Notes under the pieces: generated by a model
Seen by the model: only the letters and a program-made list of their open reading frames with translations
The model's database searches: none
Told to the model about the DNA's origin: nothing
Position numbers and translations under genes: made by a program
Shown: positions 6,608-64,000 of the stretch, one piece after another
Layout: the number at the start of each line of letters is the position of its first letter
Numbering within the stretch: the stretch's first letter is position 1
Source of the DNA: a virus
Taxonomy: Duplodnaviria > Caudoviricetes
Length of the DNA: 64,000 bases
Strand: one strand, 5' to 3'
IMG/VR virus record: IMGVR_UViG_3300042445_001485

Positions 6608-6684
6608 AAAAAAAGTACTACAAAAGTAGTACTTTTTGAGCCCTAAAAGTAGTACTTTTTATGTAGTACTTTAGTATTACTTTT
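6608..6684. repeat. Array of about five AAAAGTA(G/C)TACTTTT near-palindromes
   Basis: aaaagtactac, aaaagtagtacttttt twice, gtagtacttt, agtattactttt. Confidence 0.8.
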
Positions 6685-25236: not shown

Positions 25237-26301
25237 TTACTTGTTAAAGTGCGCCGCACCAAAACCTGCGCGATTTACCAGTTTGATCAAGCCTTGACTA
25301 GTGGGGAATACAAATCCCTCGCCAGCTCGTTGTCCGCCTGTCCACTGTTCAAAGCCCTTGACCTGCGGTTCCAGCTGTTGAGCCAGGTTGTCCTTGAGGC
25401 GGTAAATTGCGTTCCAAATAGCAAAAACAGCCGTGAGTCCTGCTTCATTTTGTATCAAATAGCCATCGTTATTGGCACCTATTAGCAACTGCACTTGTTT
25501 GTTACTGACATTGCTCTGTAACCAGGTGGCCAATTCGTCATTGGTCTGTTTGGTAATCTTCTTGTTCATGTAGGTTTGTATTGCACTCTTGACTGTACCG
25601 GCAAGACCCGCCATGAAATCATCTGCCAACTTGCCCTGTGTGGCAACTGCTTTTTCTGCGTCTGACAATAACTTAACAGGATTCTTTAGAGTGAATGTGA
25701 TGCCTGCTGTGGGTGTCAATATGGCCACATTGCCGGCGTTGGTCAATCCTGATTTGCCATCCCATGGAGCATCATTGAATTGATGTACAACTAGGCCACC
25801 AACTTTGCCTGCAACCAATTTTCCTAGGGCACTGGCCACAGGAATCCGATATTGTACTGTAACAGGCCCAAAAACATACTGACCGTCTTGGGGTTGTAAT
25901 ACTCCAGTCCACATCAAGTCGCCTTTGAACAGGCCTTGTGTTGAGCCCACTGCGGCTTCTAGTCCTGGCCAAATTAGTTCTATCTTGGCGTACAGGTCAC
26001 TGCGGTCTGCACCGCGTTGACGATCGTACTCCACCCAGGCTTCGGGGCTGGTGGGATACACACCCTTGGCCGGCATGTACTTGTCAGCGCACACAAACTG
26101 GCCTGCTTGATTGCGACCAAAGAACAGGGCAATACCACCATCCCACTTGATACTGCCTTTGCCGGGGTTGGCAATAATTTCTTTTAAGGCACCAATGGAT
26201 TTGGTGGCGGCCGCACTACCTGCAAAGATACTGTCCTCGGGGTGGGGAATACGGGGACCTTCGCCGGCCTCAAATATGTAATCTAAAAAATCTAATTTCA
26301 T
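25237..26301 (-). CDS. Conserved phage protein (DUF6267-like)
   Basis: RIPHPED...SIKWDGG.ALFFGR...LFKGDLMW...GEGFV...KLVNR. Confidence 0.6.
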   Translation of the reverse strand: MKLDFLDYIFEAGEGPRIPHPEDSIFAGSAAATKSIGALKEIIANPGKGSIKWDGGIALFFGRNQAGQFVCADKYMPAKGVYPTSPEAWVEYDRQRGADRSDLYAKIELIWPGLEAAVGSTQGLFKGDLMWTGVLQPQDGQYVFGPVTVQYRIPVASALGKLVAGKVGGLVVHQFNDAPWDGKSGLTNAGNVAILTPTAGITFTLKNPVKLLSDAEKAVATQGKLADDFMAGLAGTVKSAIQTYMNKKITKQTNDELATWLQSNVSNKQVQLLIGANNDGYLIQNEAGLTAVFAIWNAIYRLKDNLAQQLEPQVKGFEQWTGGQRAGEGFVFPTSQGLIKLVNRAGFGAAHFNK

Positions 26302-27125
26302 ATACGATCAGCCATCACCCGGAACCAGTGGGCCGAACCGGCAGCAGGTGCTGATTCTGGAAGTTGTATGCCACTCTTGCCCAGGGTTTCACGGGCCGCG
26401 GCAATGATGGTTTGGTAGTCGGGACGCCGTTGTACAGCCGCAATGATCTTGTCTGCTGACATTAAACTGGCTAACGGAATGCCTGTTACTTGGCTCAACA
26501 TCTGTGGATCCTGGCCGCCTTCTATAGTTTGATTTGTGGCACGGTCAACCAGCCCATGTTTGTAACTCCACTTTAGTTCAGGAGCAACAGCATTAACTAT
26601 GCTGGACAATATAATTTGTTTGCTCATGCCAGAGTATTGGTCGCCTTGTCGGGCACCTTTCATGGCAAATGCTTGCCACTTGGGATCGCCAAACATAAAG
26701 TCTGTTTGTGCGAATCCATTTTTGGCATTGCCATTGATGGGTGTTTTAAAGTGTACTGAGTCACCAGTTAACTCAATCCAACCTTCTTTCCAAGCAGGAG
26801 CCAGTTTTGTTTTGGCACGATTGCGTATTTGGTCTGGGGGAATACCTTGTTGCTGACACCAACGGCTCAGTACATCTGCCAATACTTCTTTGGTAATGGC
26901 CTTGTCGTCAACTGCTAGATCCAAGTCTCCGCTGTCGTCTTTGCGTCCTGTGCTTCCTAGCCATTTGGTAGGAACATCTTCTTCGTCCCGTTCTTCACTG
27001 AAATCCAATCCAGTGATTTTTTCTAGCCAGGCAATGGTGGTAGGAATTTCAGCACGAACAATGCGACGAGTGAGTTCAGCACCCTCGGCATTTTTAAATA
27101 TGTTTCCACCTTCAGTTAACATCAT
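26298..27125 (-). CDS. Pol-beta-superfamily nucleotidyltransferase-like protein
   Basis: LGSTGRKDDSGDLDLAV and downstream QTDFMF. Confidence 0.65.
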   Translation of the reverse strand: MMLTEGGNIFKNAEGAELTRRIVRAEIPTTIAWLEKITGLDFSEERDEEDVPTKWLGSTGRKDDSGDLDLAVDDKAITKEVLADVLSRWCQQQGIPPDQIRNRAKTKLAPAWKEGWIELTGDSVHFKTPINGNAKNGFAQTDFMFGDPKWQAFAMKGARQGDQYSGMSKQIILSSIVNAVAPELKWSYKHGLVDRATNQTIEGGQDPQMLSQVTGIPLASLMSADKIIAAVQRRPDYQTIIAAARETLGKSGIQLPESAPAAGSAHWFRVMADRI

Positions 27126-47684: not shown

Positions 47685-47766
47685 GTGGCTAAAAAGCCAC
47701 AAAAAGTAGTACTTTTTAGTAGTACACAAGTACTACTTTTTGTAGGTTTAAAAAGTACTACTTTTA
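47685..47766. repeat. Second array of AAAAGTA(G/C)TACTTTT near-palindromes plus gtggct-aaaa-agccac stem
   Basis: aaaagtagtactttt, agtagtac, aagtactactttt, aaaagtactactttt. Confidence 0.8.
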
Positions 47767-53692: not shown

Positions 53693-54588
53693 TCTAATAC
53701 TTTCAATATTGCTTGTGCAATTGCATCAGTATCAAAGTTACTGGTGCACGGCGTATTTCCTTTTCGACAAACTATCTGTCTAATGGGTATTTGTTGATCA
53801 TCATTGCAACCAGCACAGTCTTCTCGGGTCTGTATTGGTGTTGCATTCCAGTTGGTGTCAAGCCGGCGATGTGGCACAATGCGCTCAGGCTTCAAGTGCG
53901 TCAACAGGGGAATAATATGTGTACTACTAGCGGCCGCACATTGTAGTGGTGCGCTGTCTACACCAACAAAACATCGTGCATGATCCATTAGATGTTTTAA
54001 TTCTTGTATGTTGTATTGATCTCTAGCATCAACCAATAAGGGATGATCAACATAATGATCAGTTGCTCCACCAACACATACCACTTTAAAATCTGTGCGC
54101 TCGGTAAAGATCTTGGCCAATACATCAAACCAAACATCTAGATCAATGTTCTTGGCCTGCCAATGCCAATTACGCATGTGAACGACCACAAAGCGATCAC
54201 CAATGTCTTTCAGGTTGCGGTTGACATTTTTCTTATCTTCATCTGTGGGAAACAACTCAACACTACGATCCAAATTGGTATGACCAAATACTCTATAAAA
54301 GTAACTGTCCACATAATGATTTTTGGGGTTAAGTTCGTAAGCATCATCTAGGTTGTATACCACATTGAAAGGAGCAACGCCAGCTTCCTCATAAGGAATA
54401 ACGCCAAGAATATGCGGATTATTTTTGTATGCTTCTATGGCATCGGTTGATACGACTATGCTGGCATTGTCACCATACATGCGTTTCAGCTCACGCACCA
54501 CACCAGTGGTCATGATGACATCACCTATGGCGGCTCGACGCTTTACACAAATACTAATGGGTACATTAATCTTCAATTGCAACTCCAT
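53689..54588 (-). CDS. GT9 (heptosyltransferase-like) glycosyltransferase
   Basis: RRAAIGDVIMTT, CFVGVDSAPL. Confidence 0.85.
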   Translation of the reverse strand: MELQLKINVPISICVKRRAAIGDVIMTTGVVRELKRMYGDNASIVVSTDAIEAYKNNPHILGVIPYEEAGVAPFNVVYNLDDAYELNPKNHYVDSYFYRVFGHTNLDRSVELFPTDEDKKNVNRNLKDIGDRFVVVHMRNWHWQAKNIDLDVWFDVLAKIFTERTDFKVVCVGGATDHYVDHPLLVDARDQYNIQELKHLMDHARCFVGVDSAPLQCAAASSTHIIPLLTHLKPERIVPHRRLDTNWNATPIQTREDCAGCNDDQQIPIRQIVCRKGNTPCTSNFDTDAIAQAILKVLE

Positions 54589-55279
54589 TGGGTCCTAATA
54601 GGCCGCGCAAGCCAACTCGAGGGATCTCAGTTACCAAATCCTGGGGCAAGTAAGCAAACAACATGTGTTCGATATCAAAGTAGCCACCTTCTGCATATCT
54701 TTCTGCCATGGCAACAAAGCCGTCATTGTATGCATCAACAACTTGTTCAGTCACATCAGCAGGCCACGACCACAAGCGACTCATGTATTGAAATTGTTTT
54801 CCGCCTGTGACTTCGGGAGGAAATTGGCTGTGCTTACGCTCCAACATCACAATACGATCAGTGACCGATTCATAATAAGCAGGATCAAAGTTTTCAGTTA
54901 GCAAGTAACGGCCCGACATTTTAAATACACGATCGTATTCGGCTATTGCTCCAGTCTCAAGCAACTTGGTGAGTACATTTGTAAAGCACATGACCTCTGT
55001 GGTGTTCTTTACGATATCCCAATTATCTGTGCTGTTGTAAATGTCAACGACCGCCGGTTCTCGTGTGCAATCAAAAAAATAATCAGTCTGAGCATTGATA
55101 ATTTGTATTTGTTCTTCCGGGATTGGTACTCCGGTCATTTCTACAACACAAATATCTGCACTGGGCCAGCGTTGTTTAACACTGGCAATGCTATCTAGTG
55201 TTTGCTGTAGTCGTTCAGCGGGTGTAAATTTGCCAAACTTACTGTTAATGGCACTAGATAAAATAAAAAGTGAGTTCAT
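54566..55279 (-). CDS. Hypothetical glycosyltransferase-like protein
   Basis: ERLQQTL, VFKMSGRY, DIEH; embedded in the glycan cluster. Confidence 0.55.
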   Translation of the reverse strand: MNSLFILSSAINSKFGKFTPAERLQQTLDSIASVKQRWPSADICVVEMTGVPIPEEQIQIINAQTDYFFDCTREPAVVDIYNSTDNWDIVKNTTEVMCFTNVLTKLLETGAIAEYDRVFKMSGRYLLTENFDPAYYESVTDRIVMLERKHSQFPPEVTGGKQFQYMSRLWSWPADVTEQVVDAYNDGFVAMAERYAEGGYFDIEHMLFAYLPQDLVTEIPRVGLRGLLGPNGVAIED

Positions 55280-56304
55280 TTACGCAACCAACGAGTATTG
55301 GCCAAACTCCACTGTACCATGCCAGTGATGCGTTCGCTTAATTTGATCTTGGGTTCCCAACCCAGGCTCTTCAAGTAGTCACCACTCATGGCATAACGCA
55401 AGTCATGTCCCGGGCGACTTGAATGGAAGTCAACCATTTCATAGTTGAGTTCTTTGCCCTGTGCTTGAGCAATCAGTTGTGCTAGGGTCAGGTTATCTAC
55501 TTCTTCTAGGCCACAGATGTTGAACTTGGGACATTTGGCACCACCAAAGTCACGCTCTAATCGACTGGGATCCAAGTTAAGCACAAACATTAGACCATCT
55601 GCTACATCTAGTGCATGTACATAGTGACGGCTGCCTGCACGAGTTTTGTCTGCATTGCTGTGAATAGTAACTTTCTCGCCATCGCGGGCCTTTTGTATCA
55701 CCATGGGAATAAACTTTTCTGGATGTTGACGCTCACCAAACACATTCATGGTGTGTGTGATGTAAATAGGCAAACTGTATGTGTTTTCAAAGGCCACACA
55801 CATTTCTTCTCCGGCGGCCTTGCTGGCACTATATGGGTTGGTGGCATTGTAACGATCACGCTCAGCGTAGTTAACACCATCTGGGGCAGGACCAAATACT
55901 TCATCTGTGGAGAAGTAAACAAAACGCTCAAGATTCTTGAGTGTGCGGGCATACTGTAACAGGTTCACAGTACCAACCACATTGTCCATGACAAATTCCA
56001 TGGGGAATTGGATACTGCGATCCACATGGCTACCTGCGGCCAGATGCAGTACAATGTTTACATCACCGATCATGTCTTGGATCTGTGGGTTTAGTTCTGC
56101 TTTGAGATCGTGATACACCACTCGAATACGCTGACGGTCCGATTGTGGAAATTCTTGCATGATATCATGCAGGCGATTTAAGTTGCCGCTAAAATCCAAA
56201 CGATCCAAACTGATGATATTCCAGTCTGTGTTTTTGATGATATTTGCGATTACATGATGTGCGATAAAACCAGCGCCGCCAGTGACTAGAACATTCTTTG
56301 ACAT
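55276..56304 (-). CDS. rmlB: NDP-glucose 4,6-dehydratase (RmlB-like)
   Basis: TGGAGFI, HLAAGSHVDRS, STDEVFG, YSASK, QHPEKFIP, RPGHDLRY. Confidence 0.9.
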   Translation of the reverse strand: MSKNVLVTGGAGFIAHHVIANIIKNTDWNIISLDRLDFSGNLNRLHDIMQEFPQSDRQRIRVVYHDLKAELNPQIQDMIGDVNIVLHLAAGSHVDRSIQFPMEFVMDNVVGTVNLLQYARTLKNLERFVYFSTDEVFGPAPDGVNYAERDRYNATNPYSASKAAGEEMCVAFENTYSLPIYITHTMNVFGERQHPEKFIPMVIQKARDGEKVTIHSNADKTRAGSRHYVHALDVADGLMFVLNLDPSRLERDFGGAKCPKFNICGLEEVDNLTLAQLIAQAQGKELNYEMVDFHSSRPGHDLRYAMSGDYLKSLGWEPKIKLSERITGMVQWSLANTRWLRK

Positions 56305-56359
56305 TGAAATCCCATTGTTAATTGATAATTGTATTTATTTTAGTTGAAACTGTCAACAG

Positions 56360-57205
56360 TTAAAACTTAGGAAGATAGTTCCACACACTGACATCAGACT
56401 CAATGATACAGTCTTGATACTGAGCAATGTTTTCAACTATGGTAGATGGAAAGTAGTCATCTACTTCGACTGCGGCAAAACGGTAATCAGTATTGGTTCT
56501 AATAATACCAACACCGTTGTTGATGCTGTCTTGGATATCCAATTGATTTAGGATTTCCGGTCTATTGCTTTCAGCATGAGCAAAACTGGTCAACTTGTTT
56601 CGTGCAAAATCTTCATTGCCAAAATAAGTAAAATGCCAACCTGCATGTTCAATTACAGCCAATTCCGGACTTCGAAAGTTGGCCGGAAATGAATTAAGGG
56701 CGTGTCGCTCTCGCCTAAAGTTTTCCGGAGTATCCAATGCCGCACGACGAATGGCAGCGGGCCAAACTTGATATACATCCTGTGTGATCAACATGTAGTT
56801 GAATTTGAAATTGAACAAGGGCATACGGAATGCGTAAATTTCATGTTCGTTGTCGCGCATATAGTCAATGGTGTTACGATGTAACAGTTCATCTACATCA
56901 CCGATGATCACAATGTCTCTGGCATCAGCATCTGCCAGTCCACGCATGATTGCATCACGCTGATGTCTTTCGTTGGCCCACGGATCTCCACCGGGCATGT
57001 CTTCAACTGTGACCAGGCGCATCTTGTCATGCCACTGACTGAATCTGTGCCAATTCTGTTTTAGCAACAGATCTTTGGGTTGATTTTGAAATGTTGTGTT
57101 GGCTTCTACAATGACAAAGTGATCTATTAAATCATATGTTTCTCGTAGTCTAAGTTCTAGTAGGTCAAATTCGTTATAAAATGTAAAGCAATCGTATATT
57201 TTCAT
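56360..57205 (-). CDS. GT17-family glycosyltransferase (beta-1,4-GlcNAc transferase-like)
   Basis: YDCFTFYNEFDLLELRL, ERHQRD, GDVDE, GWHFTY, KLTSFAH. Confidence 0.88.
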   Translation of the reverse strand: MKIYDCFTFYNEFDLLELRLRETYDLIDHFVIVEANTTFQNQPKDLLLKQNWHRFSQWHDKMRLVTVEDMPGGDPWANERHQRDAIMRGLADADARDIVIIGDVDELLHRNTIDYMRDNEHEIYAFRMPLFNFKFNYMLITQDVYQVWPAAIRRAALDTPENFRRERHALNSFPANFRSPELAVIEHAGWHFTYFGNEDFARNKLTSFAHAESNRPEILNQLDIQDSINNGVGIIRTNTDYRFAAVEVDDYFPSTIVENIAQYQDCIIESDVSVWNYLPKF

Positions 57206-58053
57206 CGAGGTACTGCATCAGTGCAGGTTCTACATAGGCTGTTGGTGGAGAATTCACTGCGAGCATTTTCTATCAGTATCGATCGGAATTCGGTGCCCTG
57301 TCTAATTTCTTCTATGGTGTTTGTTTTGATGTTGCCAAGAACATGTTTACAATCATAATCCATACAGCACAACACAACATCTCCATTGGGCAACAATACA
57401 TTTTGATCGTATGTATTTGTTTTGCCACACTTGATTGGCTTTGCATGTCTAGGAGAAATTTGTATAGATTGTTCTTTGACCTGCTCAACAGGCAAACTAC
57501 CAGCACGGTCATGACCAATCCAATTCCAGAGTCTAATACCCAAATGTTGCAAATCCTGATGTACTTCTCCCTGGTCACTCATGGTCATGCCTTCGGATTT
57601 AATACCGGCATGTTGGCAAACACCTTGCACCACATGGAGTGCATATTCCCAGTCTTCGTTGTACTTCCAACCCTTCATGTTGCCGTTGGCATCGGGATAG
57701 TGTACACTAAATGTATCAAATTGGTCTGCGTATTCAACCATTAAGTCCGCAACACGATCTGTTGTGGCGCGATCCCAATTATACAAAGTGGTGTAGACTC
57801 CCACACGGAAACCGCGTTCCAGAGTCATTTCAAACATGTCAGTACAAGCAGGATTGACCCAGGGTTCTGCCATGCCCGAAAAATCTATACGAGTATTGGG
57901 TAATGTGCTGTCTAATGCTTGCCCGAAAGTTTCTAATGTCATGTACTTGACATCATCGCCGTAGCTGTCTCGTAGATTATCCTGTGGACAGTAGGTGCAC
58001 ATCAATGGGCAACCAATCATGGTGGTAAGTTCTAAGGTGGAAAATGCGGCCAC
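57202..58053 (-). CDS. Radical SAM protein with SPASM/twitch-type C-terminus
   Basis: CPLMCTYC, FSGMAEP, NGDVVLCCMD, CRTC. Confidence 0.88.
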   Translation of the reverse strand: MAAFSTLELTTMIGCPLMCTYCPQDNLRDSYGDDVKYMTLETFGQALDSTLPNTRIDFSGMAEPWVNPACTDMFEMTLERGFRVGVYTTLYNWDRATTDRVADLMVEYADQFDTFSVHYPDANGNMKGWKYNEDWEYALHVVQGVCQHAGIKSEGMTMSDQGEVHQDLQHLGIRLWNWIGHDRAGSLPVEQVKEQSIQISPRHAKPIKCGKTNTYDQNVLLPNGDVVLCCMDYDCKHVLGNIKTNTIEEIRQGTEFRSILIENARSEFSTNSLCRTCTDAVPR

Positions 58054-58077
58054 AAATATTCCTTTTACTACTACTTA

Positions 58078-58227
58078 TCACACAGCTTTGCTGGATTCCA
58101 AATATTCCTTGATAACACGCAGAGCTTTACGACTTGTATCATATACATATTCTTTAGTTTCCTCTTCGGTAGTAACTACCAAAATAAAACCATTTGCGGC
58201 CTTGCGGATTTCGATTGATTCAAACAT
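58078..58227 (-). CDS. Small hypothetical protein (49 aa)
   Basis: Manual translation MFESIEIRKAANGFILVVTTEEETKEYVYDTSRKALRVIKEYLESSKAV; TTGACT-17-TATACT promoter at 58255-58283. Confidence 0.65.
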   Translation of the reverse strand: MFESIEIRKAANGFILVVTTEEETKEYVYDTSRKALRVIKEYLESSKAV

Positions 58228-58317
58228 AGTATTCCTAAGTTAAGTTGAACCACTAGTATAGCAGGTCTAGAAATAAAAGTCAAAAAAAAATCCTGCCGAA
58301 GCAGGATATTATTTTAT

Positions 58318-58776
58318 CTAAACCACATATAGTATGACATGTTCAGATGACATTGCGGGTTTGTCAAAGCCTTCAATTTCTATTGAGACACCAAATACAG
58401 CCTGTACACCTCTTGATGTTTTTTCTACTGCATTAAGTGTAATCCTACCTCTAACACGACTGCCAACAGGTACTGGATTTATAAATCGTAATCGATTAAT
58501 TCCATAATTAATAGTAGATTTAGATTTAAATTCCATTTCATTTAATGGTCCCGTTAATACTTCTTTCATTATATGGCTTACTAAACTTAGTGTAAGAAAT
58601 CCATGTGCAATTGTGCCTGTGTTGGGATTAAACTTTCGAGCCTTTTCAACATCCATATGTATCCATTGCTCATCTAAAGTTAACCGGCCAAATCTATCCA
58701 CAAGATCCTGGTCAATCATTATCCATTTGCTAACACCCAATTCTGTACCGATTAAATCTTCAAGTTGTTTCATCAT
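58318..58776 (-). CDS. MaoC-family dehydratase
   Basis: DEQWIHMD, TIAHGFLTLSL, NYGINRLRFINPVPVGSRV. Confidence 0.9.
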   Translation of the reverse strand: MMKQLEDLIGTELGVSKWIMIDQDLVDRFGRLTLDEQWIHMDVEKARKFNPNTGTIAHGFLTLSLVSHIMKEVLTGPLNEMEFKSKSTINYGINRLRFINPVPVGSRVRGRITLNAVEKTSRGVQAVFGVSIEIEGFDKPAMSSEHVILYVV

Positions 58777-58797
58777 CTACCTTTTGTTTCATATATT

Positions 58798-58873
58798 TGG
58801 TGCCCCCACCATGATTCGAACACGGGACAACCTGATTACAAATCAGGTGCTCTACCAGCTGAGCTATAAGGGC
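58798..58873 (-). tRNA. tRNA-Thr(TGT)
   Basis: Cloverleaf GCCCTTA...CCTGA-TTTGTAA-TCAGG...TTCGAAT...ACCA, 76 nt. Confidence 0.95.
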
Positions 58874-59443
58874 TTATTTAAATTTTGGTCCTGCTATCCA
58901 ACCCACTAGACTACGACGAATACCTTCGGTTACCGGAGTAACATCGTGTAATGTCCAACTAGGGAAGAATATCAATTTTCCTCTTTCCTTTGGTAATACC
59001 AGCGGTTCGCTGGTGTGATGTAATCTTACTTCACCACCCGAATATTCTTCGGGATTGCTTAACTGTAAAATAAAACTTAACTTACGACTACCACCCATGT
59101 TGCGACCAATATCAAGATGTTTTCCGTAGTGACCTTGATAACTGCTGTTGTACTCAGTAAATTGAAGTGGTTCTATGTGTGTTAACTCGTACTCAAAATA
59201 ATCTTTGTTTACAGTTTGAACATTCCATGCCAATGTATTATATATCCAGGCATGTTCATCTGATACATTAATCCAACCAATTTGACTACGACGGTATTCG
59301 GGATCGGCCCCCAAGGCAACTCCTTGTTGACTCGACAGTTCTTGTCCTGTACTAACAATACGGTCAAGTTCTTCTGACGAGAACATGCCTGATCGCCAGG
59401 TCCAAAACTTGTTATCTTTTGATTGATTTAATATCCAGCTCAT
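58874..59443 (-). CDS. Fe(II)/2-oxoglutarate oxygenase (prolyl-4-hydroxylase-like)
   Basis: KHLD, RKLS, YSGGE, LHDVTPVTEGIRRSLVGW. Confidence 0.9.
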   Translation of the reverse strand: MSWILNQSKDNKFWTWRSGMFSSEELDRIVSTGQELSSQQGVALGADPEYRRSQIGWINVSDEHAWIYNTLAWNVQTVNKDYFEYELTHIEPLQFTEYNSSYQGHYGKHLDIGRNMGGSRKLSFILQLSNPEEYSGGEVRLHHTSEPLVLPKERGKLIFFPSWTLHDVTPVTEGIRRSLVGWIAGPKFK

Positions 59444-59458
59444 AATTATGGTACTAAT

Positions 59459-59542
59459 TGGTGCGGGATACCAGATTTGAACTGGTACGCATTACGCGGC
59501 GGATTTTAAGTCCGCTGGGTCTGCCAATTCCCCCAATCCCGC
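59459..59542 (-). tRNA. tRNA-Leu(TAA)
   Basis: GCGGA-CTTAAAA-TCCGC anticodon arm, long variable arm, CCA end, 84 nt. Confidence 0.93.
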
Positions 59543-59548
59543 TTTTAG

Positions 59549-59822
59549 AAATTTGAGTACTCTAAATTCTGCTTTCCAACCGTGGACTATCTGGCATGTG
59601 ATGATCAAATCACCATTGCTAACTCCATCATTGATTCACTTCACAGCAAGTGCTGATAGTGTATTTGCATAGACTCTAACCGTGTTCGTAACTTTGAAAT
59701 GATTTTGCCGCCTCGGCAGTCGCCGATATTTTGATTGTAAAGGGCGAACTGATATACTGCGAGTTGTTACTACTGGGACTACCACTGGTATCAGAAGGTT
59801 GCTAAACCAAGTACTCAAATTT
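59549..59822 (-). ncRNA. Candidate 274-nt structured non-coding RNA
   Basis: Perfect 13-bp terminal stem AAATTTGAGTACT/AGTACTCAAATTT, internal helices, own consensus promoter, ends 6 nt before tRNA-Leu. Confidence 0.55.
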
Positions 59823-59838
59823 TTAAAGAACAGTACAC

Positions 59839-59867
59839 ATTATATATAGAATAATGTGTACTGTCAA
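59839..59867 (-). promoter_or_regulatory. Consensus sigma70 promoter embedded in a 13-bp inverted repeat
   Basis: TTGACA-17 bp-TATAAT; cagtacacattat (59831-59843) / ataatgtgtactg (59851-59863). Confidence 0.85.
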
Positions 59868-59869
59868 CC

Positions 59870-60472
59870 TCACATTGTGGGCCCATTGCCATTTCGAAAT
59901 CCAATTTCACCACCTTCTGCCGCAATGCGTTTAAATACATCTTCTAGCAAAATGGGCGCAAAGTCTGTTTGCTCTACACATACACAATGGTAACGAACAT
60001 CGTTCTCATCACTGTACAAAAGTTCTCCGGTCTTGGCATTTACACCGCGGATTTTCTTCACACGGTTTGCGTGAGTATGTCCGTGGATGTTTACTCCAAA
60101 GCGACCCAAGCTCTCCGTATGCACAGGGATATGACTCAAGATACAACCATTCATTACATGGTATGCTCGTAATTCACGAAAGTATTCACGATACTCATCG
60201 TCACGGAAGATGTCGTGGTTGCCGCGAATCAGGACCTTGTCGCCGTTTAAGCGACTTAATGTTTTTAAGGCTTTGCGGTTAATTACAACATCACCCAAAT
60301 GATAGACCTTGTCAATGGGTTTTACTCGTTCGTTCCACGCCTTGACCATTGCTTCATCCATCTCGTCGGCGTCATTCCAAGGACGCAATTTTGTAACTCC
60401 ATCGTTACGAGTAAAGCGACATACACCGGTGTGTCCAAAGTGAGTATCGCTTACTAAAAATACACTAGGCAT
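59870..60472 (-). CDS. Calcineurin-like metallophosphoesterase
   Basis: SDTHFGH, HLGDV, RGNHD, LSHIP, IHGHTH. Confidence 0.92.
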   Translation of the reverse strand: MPSVFLVSDTHFGHTGVCRFTRNDGVTKLRPWNDADEMDEAMVKAWNERVKPIDKVYHLGDVVINRKALKTLSRLNGDKVLIRGNHDIFRDDEYREYFRELRAYHVMNGCILSHIPVHTESLGRFGVNIHGHTHANRVKKIRGVNAKTGELLYSDENDVRYHCVCVEQTDFAPILLEDVFKRIAAEGGEIGFRNGNGPTM

Positions 60473-60492
60473 ATCTTGCTCCTTTTTTTAAA

Positions 60493-60798
60493 TTAATCTT
60501 CATCTTCTTCATCATCCCACTCACCGGTATTGTGTGTGTAACCTTTTATGGTTCCCATCAATACTTCAGCATCATTTACTACAAAAACATTGTATTCTTC
60601 CCTGATCAGGCGCCTTGGGGGAGGTGGTGGTCTACGCCCGCCTGTGGTAACTTGCAAAGGTAATACCGTAACTTTTTTTGTGTCGGGATTTGCTTTGGAG
60701 ATTTTACCCAAAACAATTCTGTTGTTGTGCGTACACAATACAGTGGCATCAAGTTGAATTTCCGTTCCTATGATGTCCCTAAGTCCTTTGCAGTACAT
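60493..60798 (-). CDS. Hypothetical protein
   Basis: 101-aa ORF with AAAGGA RBS, Pro run and acidic tail. Confidence 0.6.
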   Translation of the reverse strand: MYCKGLRDIIGTEIQLDATVLCTHNNRIVLGKISKANPDTKKVTVLPLQVTTGGRRPPPPPRRLIREEYNVFVVNDAEVLMGTIKGYTHNTGEWDDEEDED

Positions 60799-60818
60799 GA
60801 CTATCCTTTCAAGTTGAA

Positions 60819-60895
60819 TGGCGACCCCGGATGGATTTGAACCACCGACATTTGGTTTTGGAGACCAACGTTCTGCCGGACTGAACTACGGAGCC
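60819..60895 (-). tRNA. tRNA-Trp(CCA)
   Basis: TTGGT-CTCCAAA-ACCAA anticodon arm, CCA end, 77 nt; TTGACA-17-TACAAT promoter at 60904-60932. Confidence 0.93.
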
Positions 60896-60940
60896 AAGTA
60901 TGTATTGTAGTATTGGTGCCTTTAATTGTCAAATAAAGGA

Positions 60941-61025
60941 TGGTGCCCTAGGACGGACTCGAACCGTCACAACTTTCGTCGCTGGAACCTAAATCCAGTG
61001 CGTCTACCAATTTCGCCACCAGGGC
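60941..61025 (-). tRNA. tRNA-Leu(TAG)
   Basis: CTGGA-TTTAGGT-TCCAG, long variable arm, CCA end, 85 nt. Confidence 0.95.
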
Positions 61026-61032
61026 AGTTCTA

Positions 61033-61106
61033 TGGAGCGGGATAGGAGAATCGAACTCCTTTAACTAGCTTGGAAGGCTAGGACACAACCAATATGCCAA
61101 TCCCGC
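61033..61106 (-). tRNA. tRNA-Gly(TCC)
   Basis: CTAGC-CTTCCAA-GCTAG, CCA end, 74 nt; TTGACT-17-TATAAT promoter at 61117-61145. Confidence 0.93.
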
Positions 61107-61141
61107 ATTACTGTGTATTATAACACATAGTCGATTCTAAG

Positions 61142-61717
61142 TCAATCTGTTTTTGCTTTTATCCTGTTGACAATGTTGTCAAATGTTTCATTCTTCTCAA
61201 GTCGCACACTTAGAATTAATCTGTATGTACCATCTTGACGACTATAAGCACCATGTGGTATATTGACCTTGACCAATGTTGGGTTTACTATTTCTTCTTC
61301 GTACACTATCACTGCTGGCTTGTTCCAATGTACATCCATTCTGGAATTGCCCATATGGTCGCGACCTTTGCTCAAAGTATAATCGCCCGAAGTCCAGTAC
61401 ATGCCTGTGCCCAAACATTCACTAACTGGTACAATTATACTGGCATTTGTTATGGCATCTGTGTGGTCGCTGTAGTCAACATGAGTATACTGGCCTTTGT
61501 TGAATTCTGCACTGGTATTCCTTTTAAATGCCACTGTGCCAACAGATTGACTCAATCCAAGACCAACAAGTTCTACATCTAATATCTGTTTAACACGGTC
61601 AGGCAATGTAACCTTGACCATGTACACTGATTCTGTGTTGTACTGCGCCATGTATTGCTCCGTAAAGGCCGCAAGCAGTTTATAACACTTTAGTGGAAAT
61701 GGATGACTGTATTTCAT
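61142..61717 (-). CDS. Putative 2OG-Fe(II)/cupin-fold protein
   Basis: THVD, IPHG, RLILSVR; start placed at MKYSHPF because the longer ORF begins inside tRNA-Arg. Confidence 0.6.
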   Translation of the reverse strand: MKYSHPFPLKCYKLLAAFTEQYMAQYNTESVYMVKVTLPDRVKQILDVELVGLGLSQSVGTVAFKRNTSAEFNKGQYTHVDYSDHTDAITNASIIVPVSECLGTGMYWTSGDYTLSKGRDHMGNSRMDVHWNKPAVIVYEEEIVNPTLVKVNIPHGAYSRQDGTYRLILSVRLEKNETFDNIVNRIKAKTD

Positions 61718-61732
61718 ATGATATTTATAGCT

Positions 61733-61809
61733 TGGCCGGCCCTGAGGGACTCGAACCCCCAACCTCCGGTTTCGAAGACCGGCACTCTAATCCATTGAGT
61801 TAAGGACCG
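61733..61809 (-). tRNA. tRNA-Arg(TCG)
   Basis: CCGGT-CTTCGAA-ACCGG, TTCGAGT T-loop, CCA end, 77 nt. Confidence 0.93.
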
Positions 61810-61814
61810 ATGTC

Positions 61815-61890
61815 TGGTACCTGGGACTGGACTCGAACCAGTATCGCTCTCCGTGTAAAGGAGACGTATAACCTCTCTACGCACCCAGGC
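61815..61890 (-). tRNA. tRNA-Val(TAC)
   Basis: TCTCC-TTTACAC-GGAGA, CCA end, 76 nt. Confidence 0.9.
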
Positions 61891-61902
61891 TTTTATATTC
61901 TC

Positions 61903-62610
61903 TTAAGTAGCTATTTCTTTTTGCCACACAAACGGTGGCAAGTTTTGTGCTTCGTAGGCAGGATCATGTGGAGCGCCTGGCTCCATTCCAATTGCTTCAC
62001 GATCTAAATCTATTAAACAACACAGTCGCCATTCATCTGTGTAGTTATGTGCTGAGTGTGCAAATTGATTATGAAAGGCCCATATGTCTGACCAATCAAT
62101 CACTTCGCCTGCGGCTTCAAAGAATACATCACCTTCGGGAATGATCAACGGAATATGTATGCGAATGGTCTTGCCATCTCTGTTTTCAGGACCTGTGTGT
62201 CGTTCAATTATACTATGCGGTGCTAGTACACTATAATTGGCAATGGGGCAAATCTTATCCCACTTCATCAACAACTTACGCATGGTAGGATACTTGCCCA
62301 TGTCTCTGAAGTCCATGGCTTGTTTAAACACAGCCCGTTCATCTCTGCGTTCATACCGAAAGTTCAATGCTTTCCAACTGTTGACATTGGGTTTGTTATC
62401 GGTCTTTATATACTGTTCTGTTTCACTAATAGGTATACCTAGATGTGTACGATCCATGGTGTTGGTACACTGTGCTTTGGCTGCTTCTTCCAGTGTGGCG
62501 TAACCACTCATAAAGTCGTCTAATAGGGCCTGTTGATGTTTCATCAAGAATTCTGCTACAGGCAGTTCATGTCTGCGCCAAAATGCTTTAGGTCTAGTTT
62601 TTTCTGTCAT
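61903..62610 (-). CDS. Aspartyl/asparaginyl beta-hydroxylase-like dioxygenase
   Basis: YSVLAPHSIIERHTG...IRIHIPLIIP...FHNQFAHSAHN...RLCCLIDL; start placed at MTEKTRP downstream of tRNA-Gly. Confidence 0.82.
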   Translation of the reverse strand: MTEKTRPKAFWRRHELPVAEFLMKHQQALLDDFMSGYATLEEAAKAQCTNTMDRTHLGIPISETEQYIKTDNKPNVNSWKALNFRYERRDERAVFKQAMDFRDMGKYPTMRKLLMKWDKICPIANYSVLAPHSIIERHTGPENRDGKTIRIHIPLIIPEGDVFFEAAGEVIDWSDIWAFHNQFAHSAHNYTDEWRLCCLIDLDREAIGMEPGAPHDPAYEAQNLPPFVWQKEIAT

Positions 62611-62631
62611 ATTAATTCCTTGTATATTGGT

Positions 62632-62707
62632 TGGAGCGGGAGATCGGATTCGAACCGACGACAATCACGTTGGCAACGTGGCGCTCTACCAGCTGAGCTA
62701 CACCCGC
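62632..62707 (-). tRNA. tRNA-Gly(GCC)
   Basis: CACG-TTGCCAA-CGTG, canonical D and T arms, CCA end, 76 nt. Confidence 0.95.
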
Positions 62708-62739
62708 ATGTTGTTGTCACATTTATTTATGTATGCAAC

Positions 62740-62813
62740 TGGTGCCTGGACTAAGAATTGAACTTAGAATAAAGGCTTATCAAGCCTCCGTTATACCATT
62801 TAACTATCCGGGC
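62740..62813 (-). tRNA. tRNA-Ile(GAT)
   Basis: GAGGC-TTGATAA-GCCTT, TTCAATT T-loop, CCA end, 74 nt. Confidence 0.9.
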
Positions 62814-62825
62814 TTAAATATATAA

Positions 62826-63038
62826 ATGAGTGTTCAACGCAATATAGAATTGGTCAAACAAATACTGCATAATCTCGATAAAAAAGATTATAAAGATTCT
62901 CACGAACAGCTTGTGTACGAATTGGGCTATTTAATTGGTCTGCTTGCAAAACTTGCCAACGACAACGGGCAATTACACGGTGATTTAAAACGCATACTAG
63001 ACAAAAAAATCAAAGAAAGCCAACAGCCTAAACCTTAG
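62826..63038 (+). CDS. Hypothetical protein
   Basis: 70-aa helical ORF directly after TAAATA. Confidence 0.6.
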   Translation: MSVQRNIELVKQILHNLDKKDYKDSHEQLVYELGYLIGLLAKLANDNGQLHGDLKRILDKKIKESQQPKP

Positions 63039-63426
63039 TGATCTTGCTAAAAATACCATTTAAAATTTTACCAGCAGGAACAAAATTGTCTTCCATTATG
63101 TGTCCGGCTAGACCATAGGCTGTAGTGCCCATGTCTTGAAAATATGTAGCAGTGGGCCATCGCTGGCGTCGGATTGGATAACTGTGTATCAGTAGTGCTT
63201 CGTCTGCTACTCGTAAATAATCATCTCTACGCCCTGCTTGTACTGCCTCCAGCATTTGTATTGCTATAGGAACTGTGCCAATATCTGTGCGTTCAAAGTT
63301 GCTGGCCATTAGGTGCACAACATAGGCTTCAACTTCATGTTGTAGTATCAAGGCACTTGCACCCTCAGATTCCACTACTAGATCGTAGCAGGACTTAACA
63401 TAATCAAACCAGTGGTTGTTCATGTT
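63028..63426 (-). CDS. Conserved hypothetical protein
   Basis: YDLVVESEG...EVEAYVVHL...YFQDMG; start near MNNHWF after TAAATA (exact start uncertain). Confidence 0.6.
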   Translation of the reverse strand, partial: NMNNHWFDYVKSCYDLVVESEGASALILQHEVEAYVVHLMASNFERTDIGTVPIAIQMLEAVQAGRRDDYLRVADEALLIHSYPIRRQRWPTATYFQDMGTTAYGLAGHIMEDNFVPAGKILNGIFSKITKV

Positions 63427-63489
63427 TATATTTATTACCAAATAAATACTGTATGATCACAGCAGACCAAGCATTAATATCTTTGTATG

Positions 63490-63603
63490 AGTACGCTAAA
63501 GGCACCTACACTGTTAGCGAAAGTTACACATGCACACCGGGGTTTGGTGATGCATTTCCTGACCGAAGTCATCCGGCTTTTCGAGCAGATGGCCTGCCGC
63601 CGC
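63490..63603 (-). ncRNA. Candidate structured RNA of four hairpins downstream of tRNA(CAT)
   Basis: GCAG-GCCAT-CTGC, TGAC-TTCG-GTCA, ATGCA(T)CACC-AAACCCC-GGTGTGCAT, CGCTAA-14 nt-TTAGCG. Confidence 0.45.
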
Positions 63604-63607
63604 AAAT

Positions 63608-63683
63608 TGGTGGTAATGGCCGGACTCGAACCAGCGATAAACTGCGTATGAAGCAGTCGCATTAGCCGCTATGCTACATTACC
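63608..63683 (-). tRNA. tRNA with CAT anticodon (elongator Met or lysidine-type Ile2)
   Basis: ACTGC-TTCATAC-GCAGT, G1-C72 paired, CCA end, 76 nt. Confidence 0.9.
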
Positions 63684-63757
63684 TGGTAGGTCCGGAAGGT
63701 ACTGCCCCTTCTTTTACTGGTTAAAAGCCAGTTACTTTACTTTTAAGTTACGAACCC
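63684..63757 (-). tRNA. tRNA-Lys(TTT) with non-canonical T-loop
   Basis: ACTGG-CTTTTAA-CCAGT; T-arm GAAGG-GGCAGTA-CCTTC; CCA end, 74 nt. Confidence 0.8.
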
Positions 63758-63763
63758 AATTCA

Positions 63764-64000
63764 TTAGATATCGTCAATCCAGCCTGGCCTAACACCGTTG
63801 ACTGTGTGACTTTCATTTTCATCATAAGTCCAACCCAAGACTTTCATCATTTTGTGCTTGACCAACAAGTTGGGGCTACGGAATGCTTCAGAATCGTCAA
63901 AGCCCAGCATGACACCCACTTCACATACCGCGCCTGATCGGCACACACCTGCCACACAATGTACTATGACATTCATGCGATGGTCAAGTGCATGTTGTAA
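63764..64000 (-). CDS. Protein-tyrosine/dual-specificity phosphatase-like protein, 5' end outside the window
   Basis: IVHCVAGVCRSGAV (HCxxGxxRS); frame stays open to the window edge (LQHALDHRM...). Confidence 0.85.
   Translation of the reverse strand, partial: LQHALDHRMNVIVHCVAGVCRSGAVCEVGVMLGFDDSEAFRSPNLLVKHKMMKVLGWTYDENESHTVNGVRPGWIDDI

Follow-up and report, generated by a model that had tools for sequence, protein, structure and literature searches.

What RNA is made from the 274 nucleotides (nt) at positions 59549-59822 of IMG/VR virus record IMGVR_UViG_3300042445_001485, and in what form does it persist? In the window, that is, the whole 64,000-nt stretch of DNA that was analysed, this element lies next to a gene for a leucine transfer RNA (tRNA). 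A preliminary description had taken it for a non-coding structured RNA of the minus strand with its own promoter, and this was borne out by covariation, by the lack of a conserved reading frame and by the register of the promoter. The comparison with relatives indicates that the element gives rise to a structured non-coding RNA of roughly 260-290 nt, encoded by a phage and belonging to a new family. We put the probability at about 60% that this RNA is excised within its closing helix (P1), is at least partly circularised and acts in trans.

The element was found as first described. Its end stem of 13 base pairs (bp) is formed on the minus strand by AAATTTGAGTACT at 59822-59810 and AGTACTCAAATTT at 59561-59549, the TTGACA-17-TATAAT promoter matches the consensus at 12 of 12 positions, tRNA-Leu(taa) lies at 59459-59542, 6 nt from the stem, and the sole sizeable open reading frame (ORF) has 60 amino acids (aa) and a TTG start (59636-59818). 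An inverted-repeat search extended the stem arms to 18 nt at 94% complementarity (59544-59561 with 59810-59827). By itself, a 13-bp inverted repeat with arms less than 400 nt apart is unremarkable, as 13 comparable pairs occur in the window. The end stem is accepted as real because relatives show compensatory changes, not because of single-sequence statistics: at four positions of the 13-bp stem, both partners differ in relatives and still pair. The features that define the transcribed unit are the following.

59839-59867, minus strand: sigma70-type promoter (TTGACA 59867-59862, 17-nt spacer, TATAAT 59844-59839; 12/12)
59541-59831, minus strand: whole conserved RNA unit, from the predicted transcript start to the base of P1 (columns 1-313 of alignment A3)
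59801-59829, minus strand: 5' strand of P1 (columns 3-31), containing the 13-nt arm 59822-59810
59542-59572, minus strand: 3' strand of P1 (columns 282-312), containing the arm 59561-59549

Seven clearly distinct variants of the element were recovered from freshwater phage contigs, each present as a single copy at the same locus. Variants L081/L110 (85% identical) were found via a search with the 2-oxoglutarate (2OG)-Fe(II) oxygenase that is encoded downstream, and L231-236, L237/238, L239/240, L242-247 and L248 through oxygenase homologues and their contigs. L151 (92% identical) came from a metagenome scan with the GC-rich word of hairpin P5, in which it was the sole true match among the matches listed. 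The homology blocks of all relatives begin and stop at the borders of the unit, and the flanks differ.

Alignment A3 comprises ten sequences, including the minus strand of window positions 59541-59831, and was folded using RNAalifold. The program predicted 71 pairs, 30 of them with compensatory changes. When 70 pairs in ten helices were counted explicitly over the ten sequences, 96.6% of the cells were paired, compared with 35-45% after the partners had been slid by 1-3 columns, and 30 pairs were changed on both sides, compared with 3-11 after sliding. None of 500 shuffles matched the paired fraction, the number of both-side changes or the covariation score. The fold is conserved, and on this comparative evidence we regard the element as a structured RNA.

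The 13-bp stem proved to be the centre of the longer helix P1, which has up to 27 pairs in the family, six of them changed on both sides, with 97.8% of the cells paired. In the window itself, P1 is made up of successive runs of 14, 5 and 2 bp and is weakly extended at its outer end. The changes include A-U to G-C at two places, G-C to A-U and C-G to U-A, and column 23/292 is occupied by U-A, C-G or U.G. The invariant G.U pairs 24/289 and 25/288 are compatible with the minus strand only; therefore, the RNA strand is the minus strand. The parts enclosed by P1 are listed here.

59781-59799, minus strand: P2 hairpin inside the invariant block GCAACCTYCTGATACYAGTGG; being invariant, it carries no covariation information
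59679-59779, minus strand: P3/P4 domain (P3, 59779-59777 with 59681-59679; P4, 59770-59766 with 59692-59688)
59726-59722 with 59717-59713, minus strand: P5 hairpin, enclosed by the P3/P4 domain together with the invariant GGCGGCAAA
59661-59655 with 59629-59623, minus strand: P6 (domain 59623-59661), which encloses P8; both-side changes in 6 of 7 pairs
59651-59648 with 59641-59638, minus strand: P8 hairpin inside P6, covarying
59619-59610 with 59601-59594, minus strand: P9 hairpin (59594-59619), variable in sequence; both-side changes in 4 of 7 pairs
59573-59593, minus strand: near-invariant block, about GATAGTCCACGGTTGGAAA, holding the P10 hairpin (59586-59583 with 59578-59575)
59762-59756 (TCGCAGT, columns 70-76) with the P8 loop 59647-59641 (GCTGTGA), minus strand: seven pairs of a likely pseudoknot crossing P3/P4

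Both-side changes were found in 2 of the 3 pairs of P3, 4 of 5 in P4 and 3 of 5 in P5, all three helices being 100% paired. The L242-247 type carries an extra hairpin of ~20 nt in the P6/P8 region. Invariant parts are P2, P10 and the long unpaired blocks GCAACCUYCUGAUACYAGUGG, GGCGGCAAA and GUCCACGGUUGGAAAGCAGAAUUUA; the invariant run of the P10 block extends into the 3' strand of P1.

The seven-pair interaction between an internal strand and the P8 loop is called a pseudoknot because it crosses P3/P4. Its strands read CGCAG/CUGUG, UGUAG/CUACA, UGCAG/CUGCA and AAUAGUA/UACUAUU in four variant types. They were paired in 91.3% of the cells, compared with 22-62% after sliding, and this fraction was reached in none of 500 shuffles. 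A pseudoknot at this place is likely, with moderate support from the aligned sequences.

The consensus fold retained only a part of the internal pairs proposed at first. GTAAC/GTTAC (P4), TCGGC-GACT-GCCGA (P5), CACTT..AAGTG (P8) and GTGAT..ATCAC (the tip of P9) are kept and covary, and CAACC/GGTTG is invariant among the relatives, but CTGATA/TATCAG and ACTATC/GATAGT are not kept; the covarying partner of the ACTATC side is GATGGAG (P6), not GATAGT. The suggested switch between two GC hairpins fails on covariation as well. It is unsupported because the alternative hairpin TGCCG-AGG-CGGCA, which has C.C mismatches in L239 and L231, is not kept in relatives. A resemblance to 6S RNA, a rod of ~185 nt whose large central bubble imitates an open promoter, had also been considered. 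The consensus fold is multi-branched, with ten helices and a pseudoknot instead of a rod, and only the closing stem is alike.

Transcription is predicted to start at ~59832-59831, at the G of GTTCTTTAAAA. In five variant types (the window, L151, L237, L239 and L231), the promoter matches the consensus at 10-12 of 12 positions, and the distance from the end of the -10 hexamer to column 1 is exactly 7 nt in each of them, even though these promoters have unrelated spacers. As this register is constant in the five variants, the homology block begins at the predicted transcript start, with GUUCUUUAAAA. The outer part of P1 arises by pairing between the beginning of the transcript and the stretch that immediately precedes the downstream gene.

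One further feature overlaps the promoter spacer and the -10 hexamer:

59830-59864, strand not assigned: perfect 14-bp inverted repeat, ACAGTACACATTAT / ATAATGTGTACTGT (59830-59843 with 59851-59864)

This repeat is present in the window only and is not kept upstream of the element in relatives; it could be an operator or the hairpin that ends the upstream phosphoesterase gene. Elsewhere in the window, inverted-repeat clusters built on the word AAAAGTAGTACTTTTT were seen at 6610-6672 and 47693-47765. They have the core AGTACT in common with P1 and with the promoter repeat, and AAAAGTAGTACTTTTT may be a recurrent protein-binding word of the phage.

The open frames of the element vary in frame, length and stops between variants. 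In relatives, a frameshift or truncation breaks the 60-aa ORF (in L081, 1 nt is deleted); this ORF has no protein record and no homologue, and a 39-aa ORF called in the L244 type and used to fetch RNA contigs gave DNA assemblies only. We regard it as highly improbable that the element is a small protein gene or a mobile DNA resembling a miniature inverted-repeat transposable element (MITE). Such explanations would account for the 13-bp terminal inverted repeat, the sharp homology borders, the absence from most relatives and the existence of the 60-aa ORF. A MITE or insertion sequence is contradicted by the single copy per contig, with none elsewhere in the window, by the constant locus, by the lack of target duplication at the borders and by compensatory changes in the arms, which covary as an RNA helix, and in nine internal helices; no such protein is recorded, which together with the broken frames argues against a gene.

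Membership in a named RNA family was examined using Rfam 15, whose families include 6S, tmRNA, RNase P, SRP, YrlA, GOLLD, ROOL, riboswitches, group I/II introns and self-cleaving ribozymes. Only tRNAs passed the gathering threshold in the window, nothing meaningful appeared at E <= 10 over 59400-59950, and nothing fell on the element in six relatives at E <= 1, which agrees with the earlier statement that the element matches no named family. The conserved sequence blocks were not found in published papers. A retron or DRT-type template RNA was rejected too, with no reverse transcriptase among the neighbouring genes and no endless frame.

A blastn search with 11-nt words of 50,697 GenBank phage records gave only matches to tRNA-Leu. 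Scans of IMG/VR with three conserved words returned only the L081/L110 contig, an 18-nt conserved word gave chance matches only in IMG/VR and GTDB, and the 21-nt invariant block was not found in GTDB genomes; by the words tried, no other IMG/VR contig contains the family. Nor does the element occur at 80 loci with the neighbouring phosphoesterase gene, at the oxygenase loci that are more distant, or in two relatives of ~340 kb, both near-complete.

The element or its variants are present in at least eleven lake and river metatranscriptomes. Six lake/freshwater runs from six studies, one of only 38 million letters, contain 89-96% of the element's sampled words, and five further RNA runs contain 50-89% of the sampled words of the L081 variant. 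Four RNA runs (X15, X16, X17 and X20) were compared as assembled contigs with window positions 54001-64000. The element was seen in all four, as contigs identical to the window over 247-268 nt.

59555-59801: X17, linear contig of 247 nt, no joint
59557-59807: X20, linear contig of 253 nt, no joint
59672-59816 then 59549-59701: X15, contig of 298 nt; joint from 59816 to 59549, going back 268
59690-59808 then 59555-59719: X16, contig of 284 nt; joint from 59808 to 59555, going back 254
59555-59808, minus strand: core covered by identical contigs in all four metatranscriptomes; 254-nt cycle in X16

Head-to-tail joints, which the preliminary description had not foreseen, are present in two of the four libraries. 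In X15 and X16, the first and the last 30 letters coincide, which is the form that a closed cycle takes in the output of a 31-mer graph. Both joints connect the same strand, have shorter sides of 145 and 119 nt and contain zero other letters, and neither circle has an endless ORF. The 268-nt cycle of X15 (59549-59816) can equally be placed as 59555-59822. As the ~20 DNA contigs, all with one linear copy, do not show the head-to-tail order, the joined molecules are taken not to be genomic DNA, although a rare tandem form in DNA is conceivable.

The RNA contigs end or join in the stem (59555/59549; 59808/59816-22) and not at the RNase P site 59543/59542. Thus, the proposal that RNase P defines the 3' end did not hold; RNase P may trim the precursor, but it would not be what defines the accumulating species. 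A linkage to tRNA-Leu had been proposed as well, and it is not obligatory: three variant types (L237, L239 and L242-247) lead into the oxygenase gene without a tRNA between. The linear X17 and X20 contigs stop near the X16 joint, a weak hint of a real boundary. On balance, a discrete processed RNA with its ends inside P1 appears likely.

Contig depths for the element were 40.7, 129.4, 23.4 and 6.4, compared with 2-5 for the few identical pieces elsewhere, and they are not evidence of rank, since the runs had been picked for holding the element. The rest of 54001-64000 had almost no contigs at 99-100% identity in the four runs, and this missing cover is not evidence either. Many short RNA contigs of high depth at 85-90% identity were seen over the phosphoesterase gene (60150-60485), which suggests that relatives of the phage are transcribed in these lakes too. 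As for the element, the four runs showed the exact window variant only.

Both joints lie inside P1. The X15 joint is ambiguous by 6 nt owing to the self-complementary AAATTT in both arms. One of its seven equivalent placements, 59818 joined to 59551, is what would result if P1 were cut in the manner of RNase III, with a 3' overhang of 2 nt, and the ends were then ligated; the product would have 268 nt and a stub of P1 capped by an AAAUUU loop. For the X16 joint (C59555 with G59808), the ambiguity is 0 nt with the window sequence and 8 nt (GAGTACTC) if the strain has C at 59809, like four relatives. With 21-27 bp, P1 has the length of an RNase III substrate (about two turns or more), and the one X15 placement fits the 2-nt 3' overhang.

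A candidate for the sealing enzyme is encoded in the window:

25237-26301, minus strand: gene of a DUF6267 protein (Pfam DUF6267 only)

The KWDG, GDLM-type and EGFV motifs and the following lysine (K340) are invariant in the DUF6267 family. The AlphaFold model of the protein is confident, with a predicted local distance difference test (pLDDT) value of 89. Nothing was found by phmmer against the PDB or by Foldseek, and the exhaustive structural search of VIA-align placed almost only ATP-dependent RNA/DNA ligases at its top ranks (Z 5-6.5), namely the Naegleria and trypanosome RNA ligases, T4 Rnl1, Rnl2 and tRNA ligase. Judging by its motifs and model, the DUF6267 protein is a probable, though divergent, polynucleotide ligase that occurs widely in uncultured phages. 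Its gene is overlapped by another (26298-27125, minus strand, 275 aa) with no Pfam or PHROG match.

Several points weigh against an excised and circularised RNA. The two cycles are unequal (268 and 254 nt), and both joints lie at short repeats that arise from the self-complementary AAATTT and AGTACT, sites at which reverse transcriptase is able to change template. As short dead ends are clipped during assembly, chimeric reads could close a cycle even if they were in the minority. The X17 and X20 contigs are linear, contigs carry no information on ends, strand or level, and the choice of runs for holding the element means that depths cannot rank it against its neighbours. The ligase-like match of DUF6267 is middling (Z below 8), and the family is common among the relatives, hence without a specific tie to this RNA. 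Finally, the single-sequence minimum-energy fold of the 274 nt (-65.9 kcal/mol; z = -1.38 against shuffles) is not significant; this comparison with shuffled controls, proposed in the preliminary description, was not used as support.

These joints could also come from the same stable processed RNA being linear in the cell, with reverse transcriptase switching template at the AAATTT/GAGTACT microhomologies and the assembler removing the true short ends and then closing the cycles. Reverse transcriptases are known to leave a template at its end or to move from one short repeat to another, the two runs have two different joints, each at a microhomology, and the two other runs are linear. In addition, the repeats exist only through the self-complementary arms of the window type, the P1 arms of L237, L239 and L231 being non-palindromic. 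However, cycles were obtained in two independent studies without inserted letters at the joints, and all four contigs end or join at ~59555 and 59801-59808 rather than at ~59831/59543, which is a weak hint. A linear molecule is a serious alternative that we nevertheless hold to be doubtful. Since the two joints differ and lie at microhomologies, the RNA is taken for a covalently closed circle only at roughly even odds.

The joints, together with long invariant unpaired blocks beside covarying helices and a pseudoknot, typical of catalytic RNAs, would also suit a new ribozyme or intron-like element that cuts and ligates itself without protein. No group I/II intron or self-cleaving ribozyme model matched even at E <= 10 or E <= 1, the joint nucleotides are not G, the position of the joint is inconstant, and there are no exons to join, only a leader of 10-20 nt. 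Such self-processing therefore appears very unlikely. Among the known classes, a group I intron was rejected, as the element is flanked by a promoter leader on one side and by a tRNA or start codon on the other, RF00028 does not match and the joint nucleotides are C, A or U; ribozyme-bearing circles of the viroid or retrozyme kind (hammerhead, hairpin, twister or like hepatitis delta virus) were rejected for lack of such an Rfam match, although a ribozyme of some new type is conceivable.

The excised RNA would be expected to arise as follows. The sigma70 promoter would start transcription at ~59831, and P1, of up to 27 bp, would form between the first bases of the transcript and a stretch ~280 nt further on. 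P1 would close a multi-branched core of P2-P10, the pseudoknot between a loop and an internal strand, and the invariant blocks, with tRNA-Leu(UAA), the 2OG-Fe(II) oxygenase gene or both further downstream on the same transcript. The unit would then be cut out in P1, most plausibly by a double-strand-specific nuclease, for example RNase III of the host; where it precedes a tRNA, RNase P would trim it as well. The excised RNA would persist as a discrete species of ~254-268 nt, at least a part of which would be joined head to tail into a covalently closed circle with a loop-capped stub of P1. Its most likely role would be in trans and early in infection, as a stable decoy or scaffold to which proteins bind. 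The fullest form of this proposal, namely excision inside the 27-bp helix, sealing possibly by DUF6267, and an exonuclease-proof circle of ~254-268 nt whose invariant loops sequester a host or phage factor, is put forward tentatively.

A decoy or scaffold is our best guess for the function, and it is compatible with a role in cis in the maturation of the tRNA or messenger RNA. The element might even be, first of all, a 5' leader that processes or regulates tRNA-Leu and the oxygenase gene, with the fragment as a by-product: P1 would mask the region of the ribosome-binding site (RBS) or the 5' end of the tRNA until cleavage or until a ligand or protein binds to the conserved core. The element always lies between the promoter and the oxygenase gene, the AGG of the RBS in the L242-247 type pairs with the first transcript bases at the base of P1, and a related word, GTTCTTTAAAAATT, follows consensus promoters before tRNAs in relatives without the element. 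However, the RBS is paired in P1 in this one variant type only (L237 and L239 have no clear RBS in P1), there is no terminator/antiterminator alternative, and the one proposed alternative hairpin is not conserved. Moreover, a leader of ~290 nt containing a pseudoknot would be a large one, the downstream gene varies (a tRNA or none), and the two near-complete relatives do without the element. We consider such a cis leader unlikely as the principal explanation.

The surroundings of the element place it within a tRNA island of 10 tRNAs, between genes of a phosphoesterase and an oxygenase; a MaoC dehydratase is also encoded nearby.

59870-60472: metallophosphoesterase gene, upstream neighbour of the element
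59459-59542, minus strand: tRNA-Leu(UAA), directly after the base of P1, 6 nt past the 13-bp stem
58874-59443, minus strand: 2OG-Fe(II) oxygenase gene (Pfam PF13640), downstream neighbour in every variant by synteny

All genes of the window are on the minus strand. They encode ribonucleotide reductase, virion proteins and a DnaB-like helicase with 48% identity to those of PA5oct-like and Atu_ph07 jumbo phages. In IMG/VR, over 590 relatives of the metallophosphoesterase occur, and the contigs that carry them reach 345 kb. Because of this gene content, the kinship of the helicase and the relatives of the phosphoesterase, the source of the window is identified by its sequence as an uncultured freshwater jumbo phage.

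Two more sigma70 promoters that are close to the consensus (11/12) occur in the island at 60932-60904 and 61145-61117 on the minus strand, preceding tRNA-Trp and a tRNA-Gly/Leu pair. The island seems to have been assembled from many short, strongly promoted units.

The tRNA-Leu(UAA) gene follows the element in the window, L151/L248, L081 and L231, and the L237, L239 and L242-247 types lack it, the start codon of the oxygenase lying ~8-17 nt past P1. The tRNA-Leu(UAA) genes of L081 (3528-3612) and L151 (1983-2066) are ~74% identical to that of the window, beside elements that are 85-92% identical. Because tRNA alleles diverge or vanish beside conserved elements, the borders of P1 look like recombination boundaries. 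In related jumbo-phage contigs without the element (L345, 1440-1530; L347, 1440-1530), TTGACA-17-TATAAT is followed by GTTCTTTAAAAATT and then immediately by a tRNA (Leu-UAG, Tyr), and in L345 the similarity extends past GTTCTTTAAAAATT into sequence equivalent to the 5' strand of P1. This alignment hints that the element arose in, or inserted into, a common leader of tRNA operons.

To our knowledge, few structured phage RNAs without a known function have been described, and for hardly any of them is there evidence that they are expressed in nature. The present element unites strong covariation (30 compensatory pairs and a pseudoknot), a consensus promoter kept in register and presence in at least eleven metatranscriptomes.

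The nearest analogues by context are the stable RNAs C and D (species 1 and 2) of the T4 tRNA cluster, the function of which is still unknown (PMC9697503). They are likewise small phage non-coding RNAs among tRNA genes. The element, however, is about twice as long, has no sequence similarity to them, possesses a 27-bp closing helix and head-to-tail joints, and has its own consensus promoter of early type, whereas the T4 RNAs are expressed late. Membership was rejected, with no sequence homology among the 50,697 phage records and a context that is merely analogous. The GOLLD and ROOL RNAs have elaborate conserved folds with pseudoknots, occur in phage context, often near tRNAs, and have no known function. 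The element resembles them in its elaborate fold, pseudoknot, phage context and tRNA neighbourhood, but it is 2-3 times smaller, matches no Rfam model and has so far been found in one freshwater jumbo-phage lineage.

A long flanking helix that brackets a unit, with the ends inside the helix, is also a feature of the RNase III stems of ribosomal RNA (rRNA) precursors and of T7 and lambda early transcripts, and of helix-excised circles. We know of no splicing endonuclease in bacterial hosts and of no religation of RNase III products in bacteria. Archaeal introns and rRNA spacers, as well as the tricRNAs of animals, are helix-excised pieces that are ligated into circles (PMC4536317). Unlike these, P1 has no bulge-helix-bulge motif, and its cleavage is inferred here. 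DucS of Bacillus altitudinis is a chromosomal non-coding RNA with experimentally validated linear and circular forms, the circularisation mechanism of which is not known (PMC10504365). It shares with the element a DNA-encoded non-coding RNA of the bacterial world in linear and permuted or circular form, whereas the element is phage-encoded, has a long closing helix, and its possible circle was seen in assembled contigs. If the circles are real, this would be the first phage-encoded, protein-free, non-intron circular non-coding RNA and, if the proposed mechanism is true, a novel route to circular RNAs in bacteria as well as a new class of phage RNA.

Finally, the length of 250-270 nt and the closed cycle in metatranscriptome assemblies are shared with viroid-like circular RNAs. 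The element differs from them in being DNA-encoded in a phage with a promoter, in matching no ribozyme, in not being rod-like and in showing no sign of RNA replication. Surveys of circular RNAs in metatranscriptomes explicitly did not pursue cycles that lacked a known ribozyme, and they cautioned against sequences encoded in DNA (10.1101/2022.07.19.500677). The element would belong to this ribozyme-less class, and some of the circular RNAs without ribozymes in such surveys may be DNA-encoded phage transcripts rather than RNA replicons.

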